DNA of 64,000 nt from Macrostomum lignano (lineage: Eukaryota). The stretch is taken from assembly GCA_002269645.1 (NCBI GenBank), contig NIVC01001857.1, positions 1 to 64,000 on the forward strand, read 5' to 3'. The notes under the pieces were generated by a model. That model was not told the origin of the DNA and ran no database searches. It worked only from the letters and a program-made list of their open reading frames with translations. Positions within the stretch are counted from its first letter, which is position 1. Each line of letters begins with the position of its first letter. Positions 1 to 56,193 of this stretch are shown here, one piece after another. Both the position numbers and the translations under genes were made by a program.

Positions 1-2109
1 TGGGAGCATGAAAAATTGGAAACTTAGTGTTGTTCCGCAATCATCCGAGCGATACTTGTCACTAAGGGCGGAATTCCCTGTTGCAAGTTACGTAAAGAAC
101 GGAAAAGTTGTGCCAATCATGTTTACAATTCAGTTCATCGACTCGCTCTGCTTTTTGAAGGAAGTTTGTCCAATTTGTTTGCTAATCTTCCCGAAGCTGA
201 ATGCAAGCTGACAATGCAAATGCTTGAGTCAAGACCACATCTTTCAAGAGAGCTACTTCGAAAAAAAGGGATTTTCCCATATGATTACCTCACAGGATTT
301 GAGATTCTCGAGCAGTCGGTTTTGCCGCCTAAAGATGCTTTTTTTAATCGACTTTCCGATCGGGGAATTTCCGACGACGACTACAATAGAGCAAGAGCGG
401 CATGGGCGGCATTTCAATGCAAAAGTTTGAAGGATTATATGCTCGCCTATCTTGAAATGGATGTAAGGCAGCTGGCTGACATTTTCGAGACATTCCGACA
501 GGCCAGTCTGAAAGAGGACGGATTGGATCCGGTACACTACTTTACTACTCCTGGTTTGTCTTACGACTCAGCTCTAAAGTCGACTGGAGTGGTTCTAGAG
601 CAGCTGACTGATGCTGACATGTATCATCTGTTTGAGAAGGGAATACGAGGAGGCATGTCCTTCATTAATGTGCATTGCGTCAAAGGTAATAATCCTAGCT
701 TGCCAGGTTATGATGATCAGCAAGAGAGTGTAAGCCTCATGCCGATCGATATGAACAACTTGTATGGCTTTGCCCTGTCGCTTCCGCTTCCATGCAGGGA
801 ATTCAGGTGGGTACCGGAACAGGAAATCCAGTTCTGGGACTCCAATCGGTTTCTGTCACTCAATCCAGAAGCCGAGATCGCCTACCTTGTTCAACTCGAT
901 CTAGAATACCCAGCTGAGATTCACGATTCGACTCAGGAGTTACCGTTTGCACCTGAAAAATCAAAACCACAGCCAGATCAATTCTCGCCGTACATGGCCG
1001 AACTATGGAAAGAGATTGCTGAACAGCGAACTGGCAATGCTGAAGCTAAGTTTCAAGCAACGGAGAAGCTTCTACTCACCTGTACCGACAAGGATTCTTA
1101 CGTAGTTCACAGCACCGTTTTAAGATTTTACCTGCAACACGGAATGCGGATCAAGTGCGTCAAAAAAATGATTTCGTTCAAGCAGGAAAATATTTTCGCG
1201 CCGTACATTGCCAGCAACAATGAAAAAAGAGCTTTGGCAACTTCCGAGTTTGCTAAGGATTTTTACAAATTGAAAAACAATTCTCTCTTTGGAAAAACTA
1301 TGGAGAACGTTCGAAAAAGATGCGATGTTCGAATTTGCACTAACCAGACTCAAGCAGAAACTTGCGCCTCTCGACCAAACTGTGCCGCATTCTCGATTAT
1401 CAATGAGTCGTTGAGCATTTTTCAGCTCAAAAAAGATAAAGTCACGCTTGACAAGGCCATTTTCGTTGGCCAGGCAGTTCTCGATCTCTCTAAGATGGCC
1501 ATGTACAGCCTACTATATGACAGGCTCCGACCGCTGTTCTGTCATTCAGACGGTTCCAGAGACATGATGCTTTGCGGAGGTGATACTGACTCATTTTTTC
1601 TAGCTTTCAAGAATCATGATTTAACATCGGAGGTAATCCCGAAGCTTAGAGAGGAAAAAATACTTGACACATCCAACTATTCTCGAGACCATCCGCATTT
1701 CTCTGAAGAGTTAAAAGGAAAGCTGGGCTGCGTTAAAGATGAATCTGCTGGTGGAATTTACCAGGAGTGGATTCTTTTGCGTCCAAAACTTTATTCGTTT
1801 CTCCCTGCCGAGAATTCGAGTGCAAAGATCAAGAAAACTGCCAAAGGCGTGAAGCAGTCAGTAGTAAGACAGCAAATTTCGCATGCGAACTATGTCGACG
1901 CGTTCGAGTCCAAGCAAGAGCAGATGGTTGCCATGACAGCGATTGTTTCCAAGAAACACGAAATCTTCACGTCGGTCATGGAGAAAAGAAGCCTATCGGT
2001 GTGGGAGGATAAGCGAGTGTGGCTTAGCAGTAATCGAAGCCTGCCCTACGGACACTATGCGCTGACGCCCGCATCCCACGATCAGCTGAAGCGCATCCGA
2101 CTGGTCTAG
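1..2109 (+). CDS. polB: Protein-primed family B DNA polymerase (pPolB), 5'-truncated by the window edge, apparent 1-nt frameshift at 160-161
   Basis: Motifs FIDS (exonuclease region, in ORF 8..211), KGIFPYDY, YLEMDV (ExoIII), IRGG, DMNNLYG (A), KLKNNSLFGK (B), GDTDS (C), KLYS, KGV. Adding one G at 160-161 joins ORF 8..211 to 166..2109 (FIDSLCFLK-GSLSNLFANL). The frame is open to the window start. Confidence 0.95.
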
Positions 2110-2684: not shown

Positions 2685-2696
2685 TTTATTTTTATT
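2685..2696 (-). terminator. Tandem AATAAA polyadenylation signals overlapping the TBP-like stop codon
   Basis: Minus strand reads GAA TAA AAATAAA at the end of the leftward gene cluster, facing the polB 3' region. Confidence 0.65.
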
Positions 2697-3264
2697 CAAT
2701 GGAAAGAACTACATTGAGTAGACGCATGCTATCGGTATGCAACTGATTCAAGGACCGAGCTCCACTGAGAACAAAAGAGCCGCTGTGAAAAAGCAGACAT
2801 TTACAAAAGTTTAAATTGAAAATTAAAGCAGAAAAGGATTCTGGTTCATATTCGGCGTTTGGGATAATTGATTTTAACATTAATAAGGAAAGTGCGGAAT
2901 GAACTGGGAGCTGTCCATGAGCAGTAATAGTTTTAATTCGAACACAAATTGTTTGATGAGGCAGCAGTTGAGCCGGCACTCTCCGATGCAGCATAGCCAC
3001 GAAGCGACGGGCAGCCCTTTTGGCGTCTGCGTGGGTCTTGGCACCGCAGATGCTCAGTTGCCCAGTAGGGTAGAGTAGGAGAGTCACTCTGGGAATCCGC
3101 ATCCGCTTGATGAGCACCCGGGGCCAGACGGGCCGGTAGATCACATGAGCCATGCTGAGAGCCAGTTCCCGTAGAGGCAGCTGAGCGCCCCTGCCACCAT
3201 CCAGTCTCAGATCTACTCCGCCAACCAGATTGGTCACTCTTAGGGCTGTAGCTGGTGGGCTCAT
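2692..3264 (-). CDS. Divergent TATA-box-binding protein (TBP)-like protein, 190 aa from ATG 3264
   Basis: Two TBP repeats: VTNLVGGVDL...YRPVWPRVLIKRMRIPRVTLLLYPTGQLSICGAKTHADAKRAARRF and YEPESFSALIF...CLLFHSGSFVLSGAR. These match TBP IQNIV / YNPKRFAAVIMR / LIFSSGKMVCTGAK and YEPELFPGLIY / LIFVSGKVVLTGAK. Confidence 0.9.
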   Translation of the reverse strand: MSPPATALRVTNLVGGVDLRLDGGRGAQLPLRELALSMAHVIYRPVWPRVLIKRMRIPRVTLLLYPTGQLSICGAKTHADAKRAARRFVAMLHRRVPAQLLPHQTICVRIKTITAHGQLPVHSALSLLMLKSIIPNAEYEPESFSALIFNLNFCKCLLFHSGSFVLSGARSLNQLHTDSMRLLNVVLSIE

Positions 3265-3305
3265 TTCGATCGTCAACTTCTTCACCAAATCTGCTTCTGC
3301 CAACT

Positions 3306-3784
3306 TTACTGCTCGTGTGCCACGGACACTGCTCGCTTCTTAAGTTGATGCAGAACTTTGGCTTAAGCCAACTGTAGTGCAGCAACGAATTTCTCACTGC
3401 ACAGCCAGTATCTGAATCTTCAGTCGAGGGTGCTCCCAAATCTTCTAGGTTATAAACCTGTCTTCCAAGCAGCTCAGTCAGAAAAATCGACTTCCTTTCC
3501 CCATTTGACCAGATCGGACCACTGGCAATGCTCAGAATGTCTTCCGCCAGTTCCATGTACGGACGGGTTCCATCATTCCACTTAAACTGGTGCAGACTCT
3601 TAGATAGCTGTCTGTAGTAAACTCGCATGTCAGGTGAGACTCTCTCCCATGGATACGGAGGTGCGTACACATGGTGAGCAATGTGGTAGCTCCCCGCTCT
3701 GATTTGAACAACTGCCAACTCCTTCACAACAAATTTTTTGCTTGTGCTGTTGCACGGGAATCCTTGGAAGTCAATGTAGTTCAT
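3306..3784 (-). CDS. Polinton accessory protein, possible DnaQ-like exonuclease fold (~159 aa after a 1-nt correction; ORF track gives 283 aa, 2933..3784)
   Basis: N-terminal IDFQGF...FVVKELAV...PPYPW...HQFKWNDG...VYNLEDLG...CAVRN...W pattern, which I recall from Polinton-type elements. Adding one A near 3357-3359 ends the ORF at TAA 3306, 42 nt before the TBP ATG. The fold assignment is inference. Confidence 0.55.
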
Positions 3785-3910
3785 GATGCAGCTTTCCTTC
3801 GAAAATTTCGGAGTCAGTCCACCTTCTTATATACTTTTCTGGCAGGCAATTTCAGCCAGGCTGTGTTGCTCCCGTACCCCTTGACTAGACTCTCCTGTTC
3901 TTTCTCCAGT

Positions 3911-4504
3911 TCACCCCCTGCTGGTTGCCATTTTCTTCTTAACTGATTTACCAACAGCGGAAAGCGGAACATTAAGCTTTTTCTGCTGCAGAAAATCGAT
4001 GAACTCGTTCCACCCAACTGGTTCACGCTCACATGGCGAATCCCTCACTGTGTGCTGAATCAAGTCCAGTATGTTTGAGGAAGGGATTGACGTGCCTGCG
4101 ATTTCCACCTCCCCGTTTTCACAAACTCGAATCAGCTCTGGATTGGTGGACAGGATCGTCCACAGACTGCGAGCCCTGGTTTTGAATTTCTGTGGCACCG
4201 ACTTGCTGATCTTCTCTTCCCAGGTGCTTATCTGGGGTGTCTCTGTTTTCATCAACTTGGCTTCAGTATTGCGTGCTCCTTCTTTTCCAGCGTGCTTGCG
4301 CTTGGCCAGCAAACTTTGCATTGCACTTTGGTACATGGCGGTTTTCACATCTTCTGGACAATCCTCGGCATACAAGATGTCATCGCATTTCTTCTGAGCC
4401 TGCTTCAAGTCAGCTTCAGTGGTAGTCTCATTTGGCTTCAAATTCTGCATCAACATCTCATACTCTGCTTTAGGAATCAGAACCATTTCTGAAAATTTGT
4501 TCAT
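3911..4504 (-). CDS. Conserved Polinton protein of unknown function (197 aa)
   Basis: ATG-initiated intact ORF in the compact gene cluster. The MVLIP...VPQKFKTRARSL...GEVEIAGTSIPSSNILDLI...PVGWNEFIDFL...NVP pattern is typical of the Maverick gene near the ATPase. Confidence 0.7.
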   Translation of the reverse strand: MNKFSEMVLIPKAEYEMLMQNLKPNETTTEADLKQAQKKCDDILYAEDCPEDVKTAMYQSAMQSLLAKRKHAGKEGARNTEAKLMKTETPQISTWEEKISKSVPQKFKTRARSLWTILSTNPELIRVCENGEVEIAGTSIPSSNILDLIQHTVRDSPCEREPVGWNEFIDFLQQKKLNVPLSAVGKSVKKKMATSRG

Positions 4505-4808
4505 TTTGCTTCTTCTTCTTTACCAGCTTAAGCAGAATCGGGAGTATTTTGATGAAGCCAGCCTTCAACAAGTCTGTCTTTCTTCTTTTGTGAGTAATTT
4601 TTCGAATTATCTCTTTTGACTTTGCAAGAACAGCTTTTTCATCGAGCGAAAACGATAGATTGTTTTGTAAGAGATTATGGCAGGCCTCGACAAGAAAATA
4701 ACGCACTTCTTTTGGACAATTTTTTATCAACAGCCGCTTGAAGCGCACGGTATATTTAGGTGACGCAAGAACCGCAAAAAGACTTGCATATGAATCAAGC
4801 ACTTCCAT
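4470..4808 (-). CDS. Small basic conserved Polinton protein (112 aa from ATG 4808)
   Basis: Intact ORF between the ATPase and the 197-aa gene. It has an LIKNC...EACHNLLQNNL...basic tract...GFIKILPILL pattern with an amphipathic C-terminus. Confidence 0.6.
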   Translation of the reverse strand: MEVLDSYASLFAVLASPKYTVRFKRLLIKNCPKEVRYFLVEACHNLLQNNLSFSLDEKAVLAKSKEIIRKITHKRRKTDLLKAGFIKILPILLKLVKKKKQNEQIFRNGSDS

Positions 4809-4849
4809 TGCGATGAAAACAATAGCTGATAAAAACAAGCTTCACTTTC

Positions 4850-5496
4850 TTAAGCAAATACAAGATGGGGTCGCTGGTTGGGCAGAATTCTGGCCCGCAC
4901 TCGCAGCTCATCGGGAGTTGATGGGTGAAAGTCTAGGAACAGGTAGGCTCCCCTGCCCTGCGCGGTCACGTGCTTGAACACTGACAGCAGAAAGCCGGGC
5001 TTCTCTGTAAAGCACTGCCTGCCCAGTGCTGCAATCTGCAGCTGGTCTCGGGGTTTTTCAAGATAGCTAAGTACATTACATTCAAGCTCATTGTTCGCGA
5101 CTCTTTTCCCTTGAAAAATATATTCTGAGTCAGCATCACCAAAAAGCACGGCAAGTGATGTGCGATTCCTGTGAAAAAATTTCGCATTGAAGCAGAGTTT
5201 GAAGTTTCCTCTATTAAGTCATCGAAAACAACCAGGTCATTGGGCCTAAGTGCTGCCTCGATGTTGGTGGGAAATCCCTGGCGCAGCTGCACACCTAGGC
5301 TGTTCAGTTCTGCATGGCCTGCCTGTGAGATCCCATAGTACCACAGAACTCTGCCAGGCTTCACATCAAACATGACGTCTCTGTACTGGATCAGGTGTTC
5401 GACAAAGGTTGTTTTTCCTGCATTGGTGGGCCCGCAGACAATCATGCAGCTTCCCTGCCTGAGGCGGATATCGTAGCAAACTTGCTTTTCTCCCAT
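4850..5496 (-). CDS. A32/FtsK-like genome packaging ATPase (~215 aa after a 1-nt correction at 5050-5053)
   Basis: Walker A GPTNAGKT, Walker B LVVFDD, TQN motif. The KN-PRD motif is restored by one extra C, joining ORF 4966..5529 to 4850..5149. Confidence 0.92.
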
Positions 5497-5519
5497 GTTT
5501 AATGCATAAATATTAGAAA

Positions 5520-6032
5520 TCACGGACATCTTTTTCTTAAGTTGGCTTCAAACCTCTGTAAGATTCTATCATTCAAATGATTTTTCTCATTAGCATGCAA
5601 ATGCTTCAAAATCCCCTCAAATGACCGATTGAACAGAAACTTTTGATAAGCAAAATAGATGCAAAACATTCCGCATTTATTAGAGTTAGCACATTGAACT
5701 CTGTTTATATTGCTTCGGAGCCAAAAGCCAGTTGTTTTAATCTCTCGAAACAAATTATAAACCAAAGATAAAATTTCAGGTTCCCAGCCGAGGGAGTTGA
5801 ACAACTCAATGCGATTTCCTTGCCCAACATAGCACACCACCCAGTGACCAAATGAGCCATTGTGCTGAAGTAGGACAAAAACAAACTTGTTTTCAAAGGA
5901 AATTGATGATCTAAATTTTCTTTTTACATTCAAGGGCAGAGAATTTTTATAGCGCAAATGTAAAGTAACTATGAGAAATTTTTGGTAAGGCAAAAATTTT
6001 CTGGCGAGATTAAGTAGTTGAATTGCATCCAT
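5520..6032 (-). CDS. Adenain-like cysteine protease (virion maturation)
   Basis: GHW...ELFNSLG...RVQ...KCGMFC arrangement (His, Asn in place of Asp/Glu, oxyanion Gln, Cys); 170 aa; lies next to the capsid gene. Confidence 0.88.
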   Translation of the reverse strand: MDAIQLLNLARKFLPYQKFLIVTLHLRYKNSLPLNVKRKFRSSISFENKFVFVLLQHNGSFGHWVVCYVGQGNRIELFNSLGWEPEILSLVYNLFREIKTTGFWLRSNINRVQCANSNKCGMFCIYFAYQKFLFNRSFEGILKHLHANEKNHLNDRILQRFEANLRKRCP

Positions 6033-6037
6033 GTCAA

Positions 6038-7320
6038 TTAAGAGGAATAGTCCAGCAAAAGCTCTCGGTGCTTGGTGACCTCAATCAGCGAGTCATACAG
6101 GCACATAGCAATCAGGGACACCGCTTCATTCAGAGCCTGTTGGAAGCGAATCTCCAGCCGCAGGTTGCCCTCCTTCTGTCCGTACCACAGAGCCGCTCCC
6201 TCGGGTGTGAGATCGAATGCAAACACCGTGGTGTTGTTGGAGAAGAGCTGGTAGGGGATCCACGGACCGAGTTTGTGTGGCTTGCAGATTGACAGCTTTT
6301 CAGGTAGTGCAAGTATTCTCTTACGAAGGAATTGTTTTCAGGTGTGAAGGCGCCGTGGCACACGGTTTCCCCACCTTTCTTTAGAGCCAATCGGCTAAGG
6401 TTGAAGCTCTGGAACTGTAACGGGCTCGCGTGATGATGACCGTTGAATGCTCGGTGGCTCACGAAGGCCAGCATGATGAACTTCGGCAATTTTCCATGAG
6501 TGAATCCTTCAATGTTTTTTGACTGAATACCCTGGGGTAGGATGAAGTTCTGCATTTCAGTTCGCTCGATGGGATACAGTGCATTTTGGTTTGTCAGCCC
6601 CTGCTCATGGGCCAGGCTGATGTGGGGCATCACTTTGACTCGGCGAAGATGCAGAATGCTGTGAGAGATTTCCATTCGGTATGCCGCGTTGTTTGCATTC
6701 GGGGTTCTGATGGCAAAGGCCCCATCGCTGGGGACCAGTTTGATGTGCAGGTGCAGATTGCTTAGCAGAAACACTGGGCACTGGAAAACATCGCTGAAGA
6801 GCGGCCCCGCATACTCCATCCATTGGGATTCCCTGTGGCTCTCCGTGTGCTCTTCAGCTGCCGAGTTCGGCTCCAGGAAGCCAGCAGGGTAAAGTTTTAG
6901 TTGCTGGGCATCGGATGAGCTCATTAGTGCTTTGAAGTACGCATGGTAGGGATAGAGCTGGTCTCCACCAGACACCACTCGCTGGTTAATGCTCACAATT
7001 ACATCTGAGAAGGCTGTAGACAGAACAAAATTTTCTGGGTGCACGTCACTGTCTCTGCGCTCGGTGATGATGCCATCTCCATCTCGAACATCCTCCCTCA
7101 GCAAACCCCCATCCAGTCTCACAAGGCGGCAGCGAATATAAAGAAAAGAATTAAGCAGATCTGTATATTCATCGGCAGATTGGTGGCAGTCAAATTCAAT
7201 GGGAGAGTTTGCAACAATGGAATTAACTGGGTGAATATCAACATAAGTAGCTTTTTCAATGCAGGTTTGTAGAACGGGCGTCTTAAATAAATCAAGTCTG
7301 GGATTGAATCCGTAAGCCAT
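6038..7320 (-). CDS. Major capsid protein (double jelly-roll; ~427 aa after a 1-nt correction at 6297-6300)
   Basis: N-terminus LDLFKTP...YVDIHP...PIEF...YTDLLNSFLY; C-terminus VFAFDLTP...GNLRLEIRF...LIEVTKHR. One extra A joins ORF 6130..7320 to 6038..6226. Confidence 0.9.
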
Positions 7321-7322
7321 GT

Positions 7323-7699
7323 CTATGACAGAGAGTCGAGCACGCGTTTCACAGTTTTCTTGCTGACTTTTTGCTTTCGCTTTCCTCCGCCTGCTCTATT
7401 CTTCTTTGCTTTCGTCTTCCTATTCTTAAGCTTTTTCCCACTAGCCTTGCTCGACCTCTTACTGCGATTTCCACCAGTTGCCTTTCGGGTGCCCTTCTTT
7501 TTCTTCAATCGTTTCGGACTTGCTTCAGTATTTCTTTTGCGCCTGACGTTGCTAAGCGTCGAGGCTGATGATGATGATATAGCCGCTGGCGGAGGCTGGT
7601 ATGTCATGATCCCTGGGAAGCTCCCACAGCCATAGAGTGCAGGCTTTTCGTGTCCTGTCCTCACCCCGAATATTGCTGGATTAGCTGCTGGTAGTTCAT
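7323..7699 (-). CDS. Lys/Arg-rich putative DNA-condensing core protein (~125 aa after a 1-nt correction at 7664-7667)
   Basis: ATG 7699 overlaps the minor capsid stop (ATGA). The corrected N-terminus is MNYQQLIQQYSGVRTGHEKPALYGCGSFPGIMTYQ, followed by a very basic tail (RRKR, KKKK). LYGC/G fits the adenain cleavage consensus. Confidence 0.65.
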
Positions 7700-8513
7700 T
7701 GAATGCGTTTCTCCTGAATTTGAACTGTAAGCAGAACAGGGCTGTGAGTCTGTGCAATCAGTGGGCAACCATAGATGTCCCGCAGCTGAACTCGAATGCT
7801 GTGAAGAAGACTGATTCGTTGAATCGGGAAGAATATTGTTTTCTTAAATATTTTTGTTTGATAGTTGCCCCATTCAATGCCAGCTTTCATTCCAACTGTT
7901 CTCAACAAGGAGCTCCAGTTGCAATTAGTTGACTCAACGATACTGCAGTGCACATTGATTAAGCTGGTGCGCGGGCAGCCAATGCAATGCTCGGATACGC
8001 GGCTCCCTGGCTGGATTTTCACAGCCTGGTTTCCAAATCCCAGCCAATGCAGAATTTTACTAGATGGAAGAAACAGCTCTGCTCTCGCAGTGTTGTTGTG
8101 CACCACAGTTCGTGAGTTGCGGATTTCGAACTTCATACCAATTCCCTGTTGCCACTACGCCCCATCAGGCCGGACTCATCAGCCTCCATCTCAGACTCCC
8201 TGTCACTCATTGCATCAAAGAACAGCGAATCAGAGTTGGCCAGCAGCTCATTCAGGCGCTCCACCAGCTCCTCCACTCTAGCAAAGCGTCCGGGTTGAAG
8301 AACCAGGGCCTCATGCTCTCTTCCATCTGAGACAGTGAAGCAGTAAGGCTCGTCAACATTGAACCATGCAGCAGGCAGATGGATTTCAGCCAGACCTGCC
8401 TCATAGTCCACATTTCGATCCAAGTAAATAGGTGAAGGCAGGTAAAAATTAAAGTCACTAGGAGTACCTTCAGCATGCTCACTGTTAATCAAAATAGTTC
8501 GCATTATAATCAT
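7696..8513 (-). CDS. Minor capsid (penton-like) protein (~272 aa after a 1-nt correction at 8144-8146)
   Basis: N-half TPSDFNFYLPSPIYL...YEAGLAEIHLP..WFN; C-half LGF...SLINVHCSIVE...LLRTV...IRVQLRDIYG. One extra G joins ORF 8133..8513 to 7696..8136. Confidence 0.82.
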
Positions 8514-8541
8514 AAACTACATGATGAGGGCTGTGCCAAAG

Positions 8542-9612
8542 CTAAACCTTTCTTAAGTCTTTTTCATCCACCCAGCCAGTCGAGTCGTAGCCCGCCCATT
8601 TCACCAGATAGCGAATTTTTCCCTTCCGCTTCTCCGTTTTCAGGATCTTCTCAATCACATACAGCCGCTGTGAGTCCGGGACAGCCTGCAGCTCGTGCTC
8701 ATGGAAGAGTCCTCGAATCTCTTGCCCCCGCATGTCTTTAATCTTGTACATGTAGGGATAATGTTTTGGGGCTCTGCTCACCACGGTGTACACTTCCTCA
8801 CTCCAGCTCGCTTTGTATCCCTTTTTGAATATCCGTGGAGCATTGGAAATTCTCACTGACTGGTTTTCAGCGAACTTAGGCTTCTTTAATTTTTCTAGAG
8901 TCTCGACTGCTTTTCCATCGTACAGGTTCATCCACACTTCAGATTCATTCTCTTTGCAGACACTAGTGGGTGCCATTTTGATGCTTCTGTGGTAGGTATT
9001 GTTGTAGGATTTTACCAGCTTAGGCAGCACATCAAGCCAGTGCAGTGTGCTCTTGTAGGTGAAGTAGCGCCACATTCTACTTTTCAGAGTTCGATTCCAT
9101 CGCTCAATGACAGCTGCCTTCTGCTCGCTGTTAGTTGGGAAAGCCAGAATCCCTCTGTCAATGCAGTATTGACGGAAAGTGGAGTTGATAAATTCCTTCC
9201 CCTGATCTGTGCGAACTGTGCGTGGCTGGCGCTTTGAACTTCTCAGTATGCTCTCGAATGCTGACTTCACTTCTGCAGCAGATTTATTTTTCAGTGCCTT
9301 GGCCCAAGCACATTTTGAGAGCACGTCAATGCATGTGAGAATATATTTGTAGCCTTTATTATGCTTTGCGAATGGAATCATTTCCACTAAGTCAAGTTCC
9401 CACTGATCATCGATTGCGCGCACTATGATTGGGGCCCTTGGATATCGCCTCCTAGCTGGCTTGTGCAGAGTGTGCACTGGCTGCTCGCTGAGCCACTGCT
9501 CAATGCTCTTTGCAGATATTCGATCACCTCTTTGCCTCACTTCATGCAGCAACTTTGAGGCACAAGAAAAACTAGCCGGTTGCTCAGGTTTCAAATAAAT
9601 TTTCTCCATCAT
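8542..9612 (-). CDS. int: Retroviral-like (rve) DDE integrase with C-terminal chromodomain
   Basis: DDE triad in WELDLVEM / RTDQGKEF / IERWNRTLK; C-terminal YVIEKIL...YLVKWAGYDSTGWV chromodomain; intact 356 aa. Confidence 0.96.
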   Translation of the reverse strand: MMEKIYLKPEQPASFSCASKLLHEVRQRGDRISAKSIEQWLSEQPVHTLHKPARRRYPRAPIIVRAIDDQWELDLVEMIPFAKHNKGYKYILTCIDVLSKCAWAKALKNKSAAEVKSAFESILRSSKRQPRTVRTDQGKEFINSTFRQYCIDRGILAFPTNSEQKAAVIERWNRTLKSRMWRYFTYKSTLHWLDVLPKLVKSYNNTYHRSIKMAPTSVCKENESEVWMNLYDGKAVETLEKLKKPKFAENQSVRISNAPRIFKKGYKASWSEEVYTVVSRAPKHYPYMYKIKDMRGQEIRGLFHEHELQAVPDSQRLYVIEKILKTEKRKGKIRYLVKWAGYDSTGWVDEKDLRKV

Positions 9613-9676
9613 GGGTTTATCAAGATACGTGCCTATCCACCTGCTCTAGCTGTACAGTATTTTTTCTTAAGTAGAA

Positions 9677-9683
9677 ATTTATA
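9677..9683 (-). promoter_or_regulatory. TATA box upstream of integrase
   Basis: TATAAAT on the minus strand ~65 nt upstream of ATG 9612. An AATAAA for the PC4 gene lies just upstream at 9721-9726. Confidence 0.5.
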
Positions 9684-9932
9684 TTCCAATTAAATGATAG
9701 AGAAACGAGTGGCAAATTAATTTATTACTGTCAGATTGAAACCTCTAACATCGTAACAGTCGGTGTATTTTCCGAAAGCAAACAATCCATAAAAACGAAC
9801 ACTAAAACACTCGCACACCAGCATTTCAGAAATAGCAGAGATAAAAAACAGCATAGTGCCGTCAGGCTGGATAATCATGTGCAAGCTAAAAGTAATTTAG
9901 TTAGTCCAATGCATTCAAAGCATTCTAGCTGT

Positions 9933-10709
9933 TCAGTTATCAAAGCGAACATTGGGCTGCAGCCTCATCGCGTCCTGCCGACGAAGTTGAAATGGCAGCT
10001 TTCGCTTCCTGCTGCTGCTGCTCACCGTCGAAGCCGCTGCATGCGCCCTGAACTGATACCACACCGGATCTTCCTCAAGGTTGGTGTCCCGCTGCGGAAG
10101 CAGTCCAGCATCAGAATCAACCGAAGGTATCGGTGTGGATGTGATTGGCTCAGTCACAATGCGCGGCCTTGTGGGCGAGCTAACGTCCTCGTCATCAGCA
10201 TGATCTCCGCCCTCATCAGTCTCCATTATGGGCTTCGTGTCCTGGTCAGCCTCCAACTTGAGCTTCTTGTCCTCTTCCTCCTCTTCCTCATCAGACTCCA
10301 GCTCGTACTGCATTGTGTTCCTCAAGGGAGCCACCAGCTGACCGTCGATCCAGGAGGCGATTTTCCAGAGCTTCTGCCACAGCGGCGGAGTCAGTGGTAC
10401 GGCGTTTCGTCTCAAAAACTCCTCGCAGCAATCTTCCGGCAGCCGTTTGAGCCAAATGATGCCGCCTTTGACTTCCACAAACTTATCGAAGCCGAGTTTC
10501 ACGACCTTGGGCTCGTTGTTGCGTGCAGAAATCACAAGTGAGCGTTTCACCTCCTTCAATTTCTTCCATTGGTGAACATTCAGGTTGAATCCTGGGACGC
10601 CTGGCTTCAGACTTGCCGTGCTGCCGTGTCGGTAAAATTTGCGAATAGCGATAAATTTTTGTCCTTCAAACTCCTGGACTTGTGCCTTATAGCCTTCACA
10701 GATGTCCAT
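9933..10709 (-). CDS. PC4/Sub1-like ssDNA-binding protein with a second degenerate PC4-like repeat, acidic tract and basic putative NLS
   Basis: YKAQVQEFEGQKFIAIRKFY...KPGVPGFNLNVHQWKKLK matches the PC4 domain. A second unit reads KLGFDKFVEV...AVPLTPPLWQKL, followed by SDEEEEEED and RKRK. Confidence 0.82.
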   Translation of the reverse strand: MDICEGYKAQVQEFEGQKFIAIRKFYRHGSTASLKPGVPGFNLNVHQWKKLKEVKRSLVISARNNEPKVVKLGFDKFVEVKGGIIWLKRLPEDCCEEFLRRNAVPLTPPLWQKLWKIASWIDGQLVAPLRNTMQYELESDEEEEEEDKKLKLEADQDTKPIMETDEGGDHADDEDVSSPTRPRIVTEPITSTPIPSVDSDAGLLPQRDTNLEEDPVWYQFRAHAAASTVSSSSRKRKLPFQLRRQDAMRLQPNVRFDN

Positions 10710-10813
10710 TTTCCTTTCGCAATTGAAAACTCACAAAAGTTAAAAGCTGAGGAAAATTTCGGATGAAATTTTGGATTTGAAAAATTGAGAATTCTTTCTT
10801 GTCAATTTCGGGG

Positions 10814-10874
10814 CTTATATACCCTCGACCGAACCACCCCAAACCACCCATCCCACTCCGGGCTCTGTGATTGG
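10814..10874 (-). promoter_or_regulatory. Pol II-type promoter of the PC4-like gene: CCAAT box, GT-rich box, TATA box
   Basis: On the minus strand, GCCAATC (CCAAT at 10874-10870), then GGGTGG tracts, then TATATAAG (10821-10814), ~105 nt upstream of ATG 10709. Confidence 0.65.
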
Positions 10875-10914
10875 CTCTTTCGCAAACATTATTTCCAATT
10901 ACATAGATTAACAT

Positions 10915-11855
10915 CTTATCTCTGCAGTGTTAACCACCCCCAATGCAAAGAGATAGGCCGCCTCTCCTCCTATCTCTGCAGTGTTAACCACCCCAATGCA
11001 AAGAGATAGGCCGCCTCTCCTCCTATCTCTGCAGTGTTAACCACCCCCAATGCAAAGAGATAGGCCGCCTCTCCTCCTATCTCTGCAGTGTTAACCATCT
11101 CCAGTGTAAAGAAATAGGCCGCCTCTTCTCCTATCACTCCTGTGTTAAGCAGAGATAGAGCTCATATCTCTGCAGTGCTTAGCCGTCCCCAATGCACAGA
11201 GATAGAGCTCATATCTCTGCAGTGCTTAGCCGTCCCCAATGCACAGAGATAGAGCTCATATCTCTGCAGTGCTTAGCCGTCCCCAATGCACAGAGATAGA
11301 GCTCATATCTCTGCAGTGCTTAGCCGTCCCCAATGCACAGAGATAGAGCTCATATCTCTGCAGTGCTTAGCCGTCCCCAATGCACAGAGATAGGGCTCAT
11401 ATCTCCGCAGTGTATTTTTCCCTATACATTTGCATTGCCGCCTATCTCGCCAGCGCTAGTGCGGCAGTATCATGAATCGCCTCTATCTCCGCAGTGCTTA
11501 GCCGTCCCCAATGCACAGAGATAGAGCTCATATCTCTGCAGTGCTTAGCCGTCCCCAATGCACAGAGATAGAGCTCATATCTCTGCAGTGCTTAGCCGTC
11601 CCCAATGCACAGAGATAGAGCTCATATCTCTGCAGTGCTTAGCCGTCCCCAATGCACAGAGATAGAGCTCATATCTCTGCAGTGCTTAGCCGTCCCCAAT
11701 GCACAGAGATAGAGCTCATATCTCTGCAGTGCTTAGCCGTCCCCAATGCACAGAGATAGGGCTCATATCTCCGCAGTGTATTTTTCCCTATACATTTGCA
11801 TTGCCGCCTATCTCGCCAGTGCTAGTGCGGCAGTATCATAATTCGCCCTACTACT
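10915..11855. repeat. Putative right terminal inverted repeat region with 54-bp and 47-bp hairpin-forming tandem units and a 366-bp higher-order duplication
   Basis: 54-bp unit about 3.5 times (10916-11130). 47-bp units start at 11151, 11198... and again at 11517..., an offset of 366. The block ends in ACTACT. The matching left TIR is outside the window. Confidence 0.75.
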
Positions 11856-12275: not shown

Positions 12276-12713
12276 AGGGGTGAGTGATGTCAGAAAAGAC
12301 GAACATAGAAAAGTAAGTTTGGGAGGCAAGAGAGAGTTGCTCAATGCAACTGGGGCCCGCTTTATCTGCACTTGTGCCGTTAAAAGCAGAAACAAAGAGC
12401 ACAGGAAAGGCTGGTCTAATTTTGTTTTTCCCAGTCCTTGGCGTCGGTTCCCAGAGAAAAAGAGAGCCTCTGCTTGTCCATCAATCTTGCTAAAATTTCT
12501 TTAAGTCAAAACGTCCTTCAAGATGTTCTGTTTATACAATTAATTGGCTGCAAGTTTAGTCTGGCAGTGCGGCAAGCTATCTGATTCCCAGCAGAATTAC
12601 ACAGTGTCTGCCGTGTGTACTTCCTCTTGCTGTGCGTCTTTGAAAACTCTATAAAGTCACTTAGGATTTTTTCTGACGCGTAAATTACCTAATCGTAAAA
12701 TAACGACTCGTGT

Positions 12714-12892
12714 CACACACTCACACAGGAGTGTACAGCGGTCCTAACTTTATTTATCGATAGGCATGTACACTTCACTGTGCCTTGGGGGTTGGCCCTC
12801 AAGGCCGTTAATTGCACGAGCAGAGCCAAGCCGAGATTCCAATTTAGTGCCAAATTAATGTGACGGCACATCAGAGAGCCGCGCCAGACCAC
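12714..12892 (+). repeat. Interspersed repeat family, copy A (5'-truncated)
   Basis: Near-identical to 27066-27407 and 58895-59193 (CACACACTCACACAGGAGTGTACAGCGG...GGCACATCAGAG). Confidence 0.85.
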
Positions 12893-13029
12893 CTGTGTGT
12901 GGCCTTACCTATGGTTAAAGAATATGATGAGAGGAGGAAGTGGTCGCCAAATATGGCCATCGATAAGGCTGCAATGGTTGTCCTCTTTCTCGGCTTGACA
13001 AGTGGCTGCTCAATCACATAAAACCGAAA

Positions 13030-13395
13030 TATTGTCACTGATCACTTGTCAATTTGTCACTGGGGTCCCTTGTCAAATTGTCACTGGTCACTTGTCAAAT
13101 TGTCACTGGGGTCACTTGTCAAATTGTCACTGGTCCCTTGTCAATTTGTCACTGGGGTCCCTTGTCAAATTGTCACTGGTCACTTGTCAAATTGTCACTG
13201 GGGTCACTTGTCAAATTGTCACTGGTCACTTGTCAAATTGTCACTGGTCACTTGTCAAATTGTCACTGGGGTCACTTGTCAAATTGTCACTGGGGTCACT
13301 TGTCAAATTGTCACTGGGGTCACTTGTCAAATTGTCACTGGGGTCACTTGTCAAATTGTCACTGATCACTTGTCAAATTGTCACTGATCACTTGC
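13030..13395. repeat. 22-24 bp minisatellite (CACTTGTCAAATTGTCACTGG[GG]T)
   Basis: Direct tandem iteration. Confidence 0.9.

Positions 13396-24150: not shown

Positions 24151-56193
<32,043 letters not shown>

Follow-up and report, generated by a model that had tools for sequence, protein, structure and literature searches.

The 64,000-nucleotide stretch of Macrostomum lignano DNA analysed here (the window; contig NIVC01001857.1) opens within a gene for a protein-primed family B DNA polymerase (pPolB), and a block of leftward genes then runs to an ACTACT end at 11850–11855. We identify the block as the gene arm of a Polinton/Maverick element present in many copies, of a family that we call A, an assignment based on complete sister copies of 16.0–17.2 kb with AGTAGT termini and on 6-bp target duplications, found in 7 of the 9 copies examined; a second family of the same genome, B, measures 12.9 kb. 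Pfam matches among the window proteins comprise pPolB, a TATA-binding protein (TBP), a C5 protease, an rve integrase with a chromodomain, and PC4. Published Polintons, Mavericks and adintoviruses likewise carry pPolB, rve integrase, C5 protease, P-loop ATPase and capsid-like genes, with terminal inverted repeats (TIRs) ending in AGTAGT, 6-bp target duplications and lengths of 13–17 kb (PMC8502044, PMC8097293). A first-pass annotation had proposed that host TBP fires PC4 early and that the viral TBP and PC4 together then drive late structural genes from non-canonical sites. Here we show that the TBP and the tandem PC4 are real and under purifying selection, and that a variant TATA word precedes most structural genes. 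We suggest that the element TBP probably reads this word with host TFIIB and RNA polymerase II (Pol II), PC4 being a single-stranded DNA (ssDNA)-binding protein of replication.

The most enriched 8-mer of the block is CTTAAGAA, which occurs six times against 0.21 expected (0/1000 dinucleotide shuffles) and never antisense; the top 7-mer is TTAAGAA (8 against 0.84 expected; 0/1000 dinucleotide shuffles), which ranks first in all six family-A blocks tested. The first-pass annotation had suggested looking for a shared non-TATA motif upstream of the capsid genes, and YTTAAGAA and related words provide one. Its view that tight packing leaves no room for promoters does not hold: YTTAAGAA precedes seven genes, mostly from inside the preceding open reading frame (ORF), and a second TATATAAG is present at 3826–3833. 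The word lies 40–150 nt upstream of most structural genes. Before the integrase it recurs at 39–62 nt in otherwise unalike spacers, and YTTAAGAA is found within the 170 nt upstream of that gene in seven of the eight family-A copies shown; the TATAAAT box earlier assigned to the integrase exists in the window at 9677–9683 but in only two of the eight. Within family-A ORFs the word exceeds what synonymous-codon shuffles produce (0–1/1000). Intervals 25–165 nt before ATGs, amounting to 16–23% of the sequence, hold 8/8, 8/8, 7/7 and 7/7 of the words in family A, 6/7 in B and 5/5 in D1, both intervals and words having been chosen after the data were seen. A register that places G at position 8 (NN-TATAAG) was considered; G at position 6 was preferred because positions 7–8 are conserved and the two preceding bases are not.

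Related words mark other families of the genome. Family B, with a TBP 36% identical to that of the window, has YATAAGAA-type words at matching places, and family D (TBP 22–23% identical) has the word TATAAGYA. Because intervals and words were post hoc, and the synonymous-shuffle tests were weak in B and null in D1, a prediction was written beforehand and further D loci were scored. Ten further D-like loci were considered, of which two were left out as belonging to the same lineage and four as incomplete or disrupted; in the four lineages scored, 20 of 38 sites fell in the intervals (p = 4e-7), and the prediction held in 16 of 16 cases for the penton, the pX-like gene, the core protein and the capsid. 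The word predicts gene starts and led here to an unannotated small ORF. In D, the site upstream of the integrase proves to lie before an unannotated 57–92-aa ORF in 4/4 lineages; after the site upstream of the ATPase, a PLA2-like ORF comes next in two of the three checked. Family C (C506, C2506; L090–L092, L142–L144), an AT-rich Polinton of 17 kb that has a long fibre-like gene and whose starts read AAAAATG, yielded no TBP in a profile search and no PC4; there the word is not enriched, and in both copies (2/2) no site precedes the capsid, ATPase or penton gene.

The TBP of the window is modelled by AlphaFold2 as a two-repeat saddle (predicted local distance difference test (pLDDT) 94.2; template-modelling (TM) score 0.84 to human TBP, 1cdw) and is 31% identical to host TBP. 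Its ratio of nonsynonymous to synonymous substitution (dN/dS) is ~0.1 in codons 1–110 and ~0.2 beyond, and the N-lobe is the most conserved part of the protein within family A (dN 0.06–0.08). This lobe has an altered DNA face. With residues numbered as we take them to be in yeast TBP, the face of the window protein departs from that of cellular TBPs by loss of F99 and by F116>Y, V122>S, T124>C, N159>T, V161>T and P191>S. Across 18 aligned element TBPs the common changes are F116>Y, V122>S/T, N159>T/S, V161>T/S and loss of F99; E188, F190 and F207 are invariant, and host TBP is canonical. V122 presumably faces TATA position 6, where all words have G. In family D, L114>Q coincides with C/T as the seventh base. 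A preference for T at TATA position 1 is attributed to P191 (PMC12529657); 8/8 D proteins keep this residue, their word beginning with T, and 10/10 A and B proteins have lost it, their word beginning with C or T. The DNA-face changes thus appear to co-vary with the family word. The acidic C-lobe stirrup that contacts TFIIB is present as judged from sequence, with E186 and E188 in A and B and E188 with D/N186 in D. No TFIIB gene was seen in these elements; with the contact residues kept, this points to the use of host TFIIB. In a tree of 85 rows (LG+G4, quick run), A and B form one branch (SH-aLRT, an approximate likelihood-ratio support, 97) separate from host TBP and TRF2, and topology tests reject neither a single A+B+D clade (p 0.61) nor a grouping of A+B with host TBP (approximately unbiased (AU) test, p 0.15).

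We propose the following sequence of events. Host TBP would fire the canonical TATATAA boxes near the element ends, which serve PC4, in family A also a Cys-rich gene lying on the side of PolB, and in family B PolB itself; in subfamily A1 and families B and D it would also fire a canonical box before TBP or its overlapping neighbour. The element TBP would then bind the variant words embedded in upstream coding sequence, and its kept C-lobe stirrup (YEPE.F) would take host TFIIB, as no element TFIIB is seen. Nested transcripts would run to the poly(A) signals after TBP, with the genes that lack a word (protease and PW; in D, ATPase and integrase) as second cistrons. In family A the word before TBP would give positive feedback, and the element TBP would run a late, particle-building programme. 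With the shared motif found, the part of the first-pass annotation that had viral TBP drive structural genes from non-canonical sites gains strong, if indirect, support, while the joint TBP–PC4 module finds none.

Several observations weigh against this proposal. The co-variation of residues and words comes from three lineages that are related to one another. Neither N-lobe phenylalanine is retained in the element TBPs, and all four are required in ORF24 of KSHV, the herpesvirus associated with Kaposi's sarcoma (PMC12529657), so that DNA bending may be weak or lost. An initiator signal sought 25–35 nt downstream of 39 sites gave no clear peak, and at some sites the word shares bases with a TAA stop codon or with Leu-Arg-Lys codons. 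The synonymous-shuffle test gave 31/1000 in B and 546/1000 in D1, and four of D1's nine TATAAG stem from one duplicated spacer. The prediction for D failed for the ATPase (0/4) and the integrase (0/4), and three of four D proteases had TATAAGGA where absence was predicted. Subfamilies A2 and A3 have no canonical box before TBP or its neighbour, which leaves the first TBP without an evident source. The negative control is family C alone, and AT-rich. Lastly, the B and D words (TATAAGAA, TATAAGCA) differ by a single base from the canonical box, so host TBP may read them.

This last point leads to an alternative in which host TBP/TFIID, or TRF2, a paralogue that the host has, reads the words as weak TATA boxes and the element TBP does something else, for example sequestering TFIIB/TFIIA and damping host transcription. 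Host TBP bound to a G(−26) variant is seen in PDB 1qn5, and a decoy might keep the TFIIB glutamates and change both N-lobe phenylalanines, as these proteins do. Yet the CTTAAGAA of family A is three changes away from TATAWAWR, the word shifts with the TBP family down to the match between P191 and T1, TBP-less family C lacks the word in the same host, and the lobe with the altered face is the best conserved part of the protein within A. We regard this alternative as unlikely.

The tandem-PC4 protein bears on the second alternative, the module of the first-pass annotation, in which element TBP and PC4 act jointly at the pre-initiation complex as one captured early/late switch. It is modelled (pLDDT 86) as two β-sheet/helix repeats in residues 1–126, each superposing on the PC4 domain with a root mean squared deviation of 1.2–1.6 Å and together reaching a TM score of 0.57 to PURA repeats I–II. 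Its sequence and fold resemble the human PC4 C-terminal domain, the phage T5 homologue and PUR-alpha repeats I–II (PMC7549692); unlike these, it has two repeats in one chain, an acidic tail and a carrier that encodes pPolB. The first repeat stands at the very start of the protein and the acidic tail follows the second. PC4/Sub1 coactivators have an N-terminal regulatory region, serine/acidic and lysine-rich, and no such region is found here. Families A and B do have both genes, PC4 has a canonical TATA box, and human PC4 is a transcription cofactor (PMC7549692). A PC4 profile, however, finds the tandem protein in A, B and E (in E with E 4e-13 and hhalign probability 97), and E is a pPolB element, bounded by TIRs, that gave no capsid or TBP match; conversely, 14 (4 + 10) family-D loci that have the word along with TBP and capsid genes yielded no PC4, although the D elements were not delimited on their left side. 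In family B, PC4 and PolB lie at opposite ends with one TATATAAT within the TIR common to both. PC4 and TBP therefore appear uncoupled across families, contrary to the co-occurrence that the module called for, which we hold to be quite unlikely. Binding to ssDNA is a feature of PC4-fold proteins, and the T5 homologue has been linked to replication (PMC7549692). The tandem protein, which consists only of an ssDNA-binding domain and the acidic tail and in family E accompanies pPolB with no TBP match, is likely to bind ssDNA during strand-displacement replication by pPolB rather than to act in transcription. A predicted TBP–PC4 complex scored 0.01, which is evidence neither way.

TAAG is the late initiator motif of baculovirus/nudivirus-type polymerases, and virophage promoters mimic the late promoters of their helper virus; every word contains TTAAG or ATAAG, and the Polinton might accordingly be a satellite transcribed by a helper large DNA virus. 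But (A/G/T)TAAG alone is not enriched (19 against 19.6 expected), the signal is 8 bases wide and family-specific, the assigned sites lie at least 28 nt before the ATG in the manner of a −30 element, and each word-bearing family has its own TBP, which together make a helper very improbable. That the word is no promoter at all, and is a by-product of stop codons, Leu-Arg-Lys codons or A-rich gene ends or else an RNA-processing signal, has in its favour the overlap with stop or gene-terminal codons, the null codon-shuffle test in D1 and trans-splicing of 38.8% of host genes (PMC5730564), but is scarcely credible given the recurrence of non-coding sites in unrelated spacers, the family-A codon shuffles, upstream flanks that are purine-rich and without a pyrimidine tract, and contig matches that, as far as listed, show neither splice joints nor loose leader-like ends at these sites.

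The closest functional parallel to a TBP that reads the variant word is found in beta- and gammaherpesviruses, whose TBP mimics (Epstein–Barr virus BcRF1, KSHV ORF24, cytomegalovirus UL87) use TATT late promoters (PMC4893493, PMC12529657). Both systems have an encoded TBP fold, a variant TATA word before structural genes and, as proposed here for the element, host Pol II, and in both the DNA face is more polar than that of cellular TBP. The element protein differs in being a stand-alone 190-aa core with clear TBP sequence homology rather than a domain of a large protein, and in keeping the TFIIB glutamates, which KSHV ORF24 is without, a clash with TFIIB being predicted there; the element variant has G at position 6, whereas TATT has T at position 4. 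The five-protein viral activator set of the herpesviruses was not seen, and none of 13 window ORFs has a Pfam herpes-activator match. By analogy, then, the element would work like the TBP-mimic/TATT system without being a member of it. The TBPs of large DNA viruses are mostly accompanied by a viral TFIIB and are divergent at TFIIB contacts, with the L5.1 phenylalanine ~90% conserved (PMC7221094). The element TBP shares with them (PMC7221094; BFVD matches) the two-lobed fold and absence of an N-terminal extension; in contrast to them, it has an invariant E188, keeps E186 in A and B, has tyrosine for the N-lobe phenylalanine and comes with no TFIIB gene that we could see.

The proposal bears on how Polinton capsid genes are activated and on the need for a helper virus. 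According to PMC8097293, no virions of Polintons have been seen. In the available parts of Starrett 2021 (PMC8502044) and Barreat 2021 (PMC8097293), PC4 or an element promoter motif is not mentioned and TBP appears in legends only, a figure legend of the former using 'TBP' to label a gene in some MELD viruses or related elements; neither TATA nor TBP occurs as a term in the searched parts of PMC8097293, PMC11296320 and two 2026 preprints, and an element promoter motif is likewise not described there. We found no literature on a Polinton PC4 or a Polinton TBP–promoter pair in a search outside which lay subscription papers, Repbase reports, figures and bioRxiv supplements. A wider proposition, on which we are evenly divided, is that animal Polintons run their own late transcription through a one-protein switch, a TBP with a changed DNA face, a family-specific TATA variant with G at position 6 and a kept host-TFIIB interface; TBP residues and promoter bases would co-evolve as natural orthogonal pairs, the elements would be helper-independent nuclear viruses with early and late phases, and the tandem PC4 would be their previously unidentified single-strand-binding protein. 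If true, this would be a simpler, independent solution to a problem that beta- and gammaherpesviruses solve with a six-protein complex, and would supply natural altered-specificity TBPs with the TFIIB contact kept, useful for studies of TATA recognition. Transgenesis methods are published for the host (PMC5730564), making minimal-promoter reporters feasible.

Table 1. Features of the Polinton arm, in window coordinates.
Feature	Position	Strand	Remarks
Protein-primed family B DNA polymerase, 3′ part	214..2109	+	Pfam DNA_pol_B_2 (PF03175) E 1.7e-10; gene interrupted by contig start
Tandem AATAAA, overlaps TBP stop codon	2685..2696	-	likely common 3′ end of block
Element TBP, divergent, core only, 190 aa	2692..3264	-	Pfam PF00352 E 7.9e-25, 87 bits
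DEDD-exonuclease-like gene	2933..3784	-	frame open 332 nt into TBP; no library match
CTTAAGAA, 80 nt before TBP ATG, within exonuclease-like gene	3337..3344	-	kept in 10/10 family-A copies shown
TATATAAGAA, 47–49 nt before exonuclease-like ATG	3824..3833	-	TATTTAAGAA in subfamilies A2/A3
Second TATATAAG, before exonuclease-like gene overlapping TBP	3826..3833	-	
Conserved Polinton gene, PW-like	3911..4504	-	frame-broken near 3917
112-aa gene	4470..4808	-	family-D counterpart matches Adeno_PX core protein
CTTAAGAA, 46 nt before 112-aa gene	4847..4854	-	overlaps ATPase stop codon of unbroken copies
P-loop packaging-ATPase-like gene	4966..5529	-	Walker A; weak P-loop matches only; frame-broken near 5049
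Adenain-type C5 protease	5520..6032	-	Pfam Peptidase_C5 E 7.2e-5
CTTAAGAA, 45 nt before conserved ATPase start (5496)	5534..5541	-	
Major-capsid-like gene	6130..7320	-	no library match; frame-broken near 6265; 427 aa in C906
Basic core-protein gene, starts at ATGA junction	7323..7699	-	frame-broken near 7663; 125 aa in C906
CTTAAGAA, 110 nt before capsid ATG	7423..7430	-	CCTAAGAA in A2/A3
Penton-like gene	7696..8513	-	frame-broken near 8139; single 272-aa ORF in C906
TTTAAGAA, 149 nt before core-protein ATG	7841..7848	-	
Retroviral-type integrase + chromodomain	8542..9612	-	Pfam rve E 3.2e-13, Chromo E 1.4e-5
CTTAAGAA, 44–53 nt before penton ATG, in last integrase codons	8550..8557	-	
CTTAAGAA, 59 nt before integrase ATG	9664..9671	-	spacer otherwise different between subfamilies
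TATAAATT, integrase TATA box of the first-pass annotation	9676..9683	-	in 2/8 copies shown; not conserved
Tandem-PC4 protein: two PC4 repeats (residues 1–126) + acidic low-complexity tail	9933..10709	-	Pfam PC4 32.6 bits
Canonical TATATAAG, 112 nt before PC4 ATG	10814..10821	-	
Subterminal tandem repeats + terminal inverted repeat ending ACTACT	10900..11855	.	

Several individual readings of the first-pass annotation are borne out: the TBP and PC4 homologues (by Pfam and structure models), the TATATAAG before PC4, the CCAAT at 10870–10874, the tandem AATAAA, and the ATGA junction at 7696–7699, where the penton stop overlaps the core-protein start (gap −4 in an unbroken sister copy). Others stand in part. 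The supposed CCAAT–TATATAAG promoter of PC4 keeps its TATA box, which is found in 7/7 family-A copies shown and also in families B and E, but CCAAT is absent from the 160 nt shown of five other family-A copies and has 14 occurrences across 11 kb of minus strand; the box, described as next to the terminal repeat, is ~700 nt inside the TIR, behind the subterminal tandem repeats. TBP, placed last in the cascade, is followed by AATAAA, directly so in five of the five other copies listed (C114, C1297, C3901, C130 and family-B C2485), but has an upstream word of its own, canonical in B and D and variant in A.

No full word was found upstream of the PW-like gene (CTTAAGCT lies at 4525–4532, in A1 only), nor any upstream of the C5 protease in families A, B or D1. 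Some gene names are our assumptions: the exonuclease-like product we take to be of DEDD type from its IDF.G motif, and the PW-like, penton and (from synteny as well) capsid labels are likewise presumed. The capsid and penton candidates are conserved ORFs of 427–441 and 272–329 aa in the expected context, with no match in Pfam, PHROG or PDB sequences. The exonuclease-like ORF runs 332–389 nt into TBP in another frame in 14 of 15 rows from A and B, one copy being broken earlier (window 2933–3264; L023, L033, L057–L058), and this extension evolves as TBP dictates, with dN > dS when it is read in its own frame.

Frame breaks interrupt the window copy near 3917, 5049, 6265, 7663 and 8139. In sister copy C906, which also has a PolB ORF of 1096 aa, the PW, capsid, core and penton genes each consist of one ORF, and the ATPase is unbroken in C114; Logan contigs of sequencing runs disagree with the window at its frame breaks. 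A 'split penton' in the window was rejected, as sister copies have a single ORF. Logan contigs from eight runs cover the element evenly; being of uncertain type and from a multicopy element, they show neither starts, strand nor level, and were not used as evidence of expression. Family-A TBP has at least 152 matches in its own genome, including at least 25 full-length identical copies, among the 150 scored of 231 candidates, and the closest protein record of the window TBP is labelled Macrostomum lignano. Host TBP occurs at three loci (C70, C713, C1301) and host TRF2 also at three (C350, C3090, C3513; L060–L071), so element copy counts in the assembly may be inflated likewise.

Family A has a mosaic make-up: its subfamilies, 93–95% identical in their structural block, diverge strongly in the TBP C-lobe, PolB, PC4 and integrase, and one breakpoint is near TBP codon 110 (window 2692–2935 versus 2935–3264; L025–L040). 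A Cys-rich ORF of 324–448 aa adjoins the opposite TIR on the family-A PolB side with its own TATATAAG (L021, L029–L030, L037–L038); its product is possibly an early regulator. Family D, found on C1704, C4948, C84, C889, C1680 and C297 (L130–L135, L150–L163), has 72 TBP matches in the genome; its TBP itself has no Pfam match, and its relatives P0168 and P0169 match Pfam TBP. It also carries a deoxynucleoside kinase, a dUTPase, a PLA2-like gene and a small Cys-containing ORF. Family E (C173, C491, C41, C24; L096–L101, L116–L121) is 9–10 kb long, and C173 and C491 show TIRs of ~1 kb. Its pPolB is interrupted, its tandem-PC4 gene is transcribed divergently, and searches matched neither a capsid gene nor an integrase nor TBP; family F (C566, C1300, C2285) resembles it without a detected PC4. 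Scans of viral contigs for relatives outside the genome returned no usable locus and one weak 2-kb ATPase match, and a metagenome scan returned none; the relatives P0002–4, P0012, P0017 and P0166–70 are on short contigs without gene context.

Just beyond the element, contig depth over window 12327–13128 is very high in each of four runs from one set, as expected of a sequence that is abundant or repeated many times. Strongly skewed, long simple-sequence satellites occupy ~29000–45000 and 53600–54800, among them an array of an 8-nt unit from ~32970 and inverted arrays at ~38800–44700.

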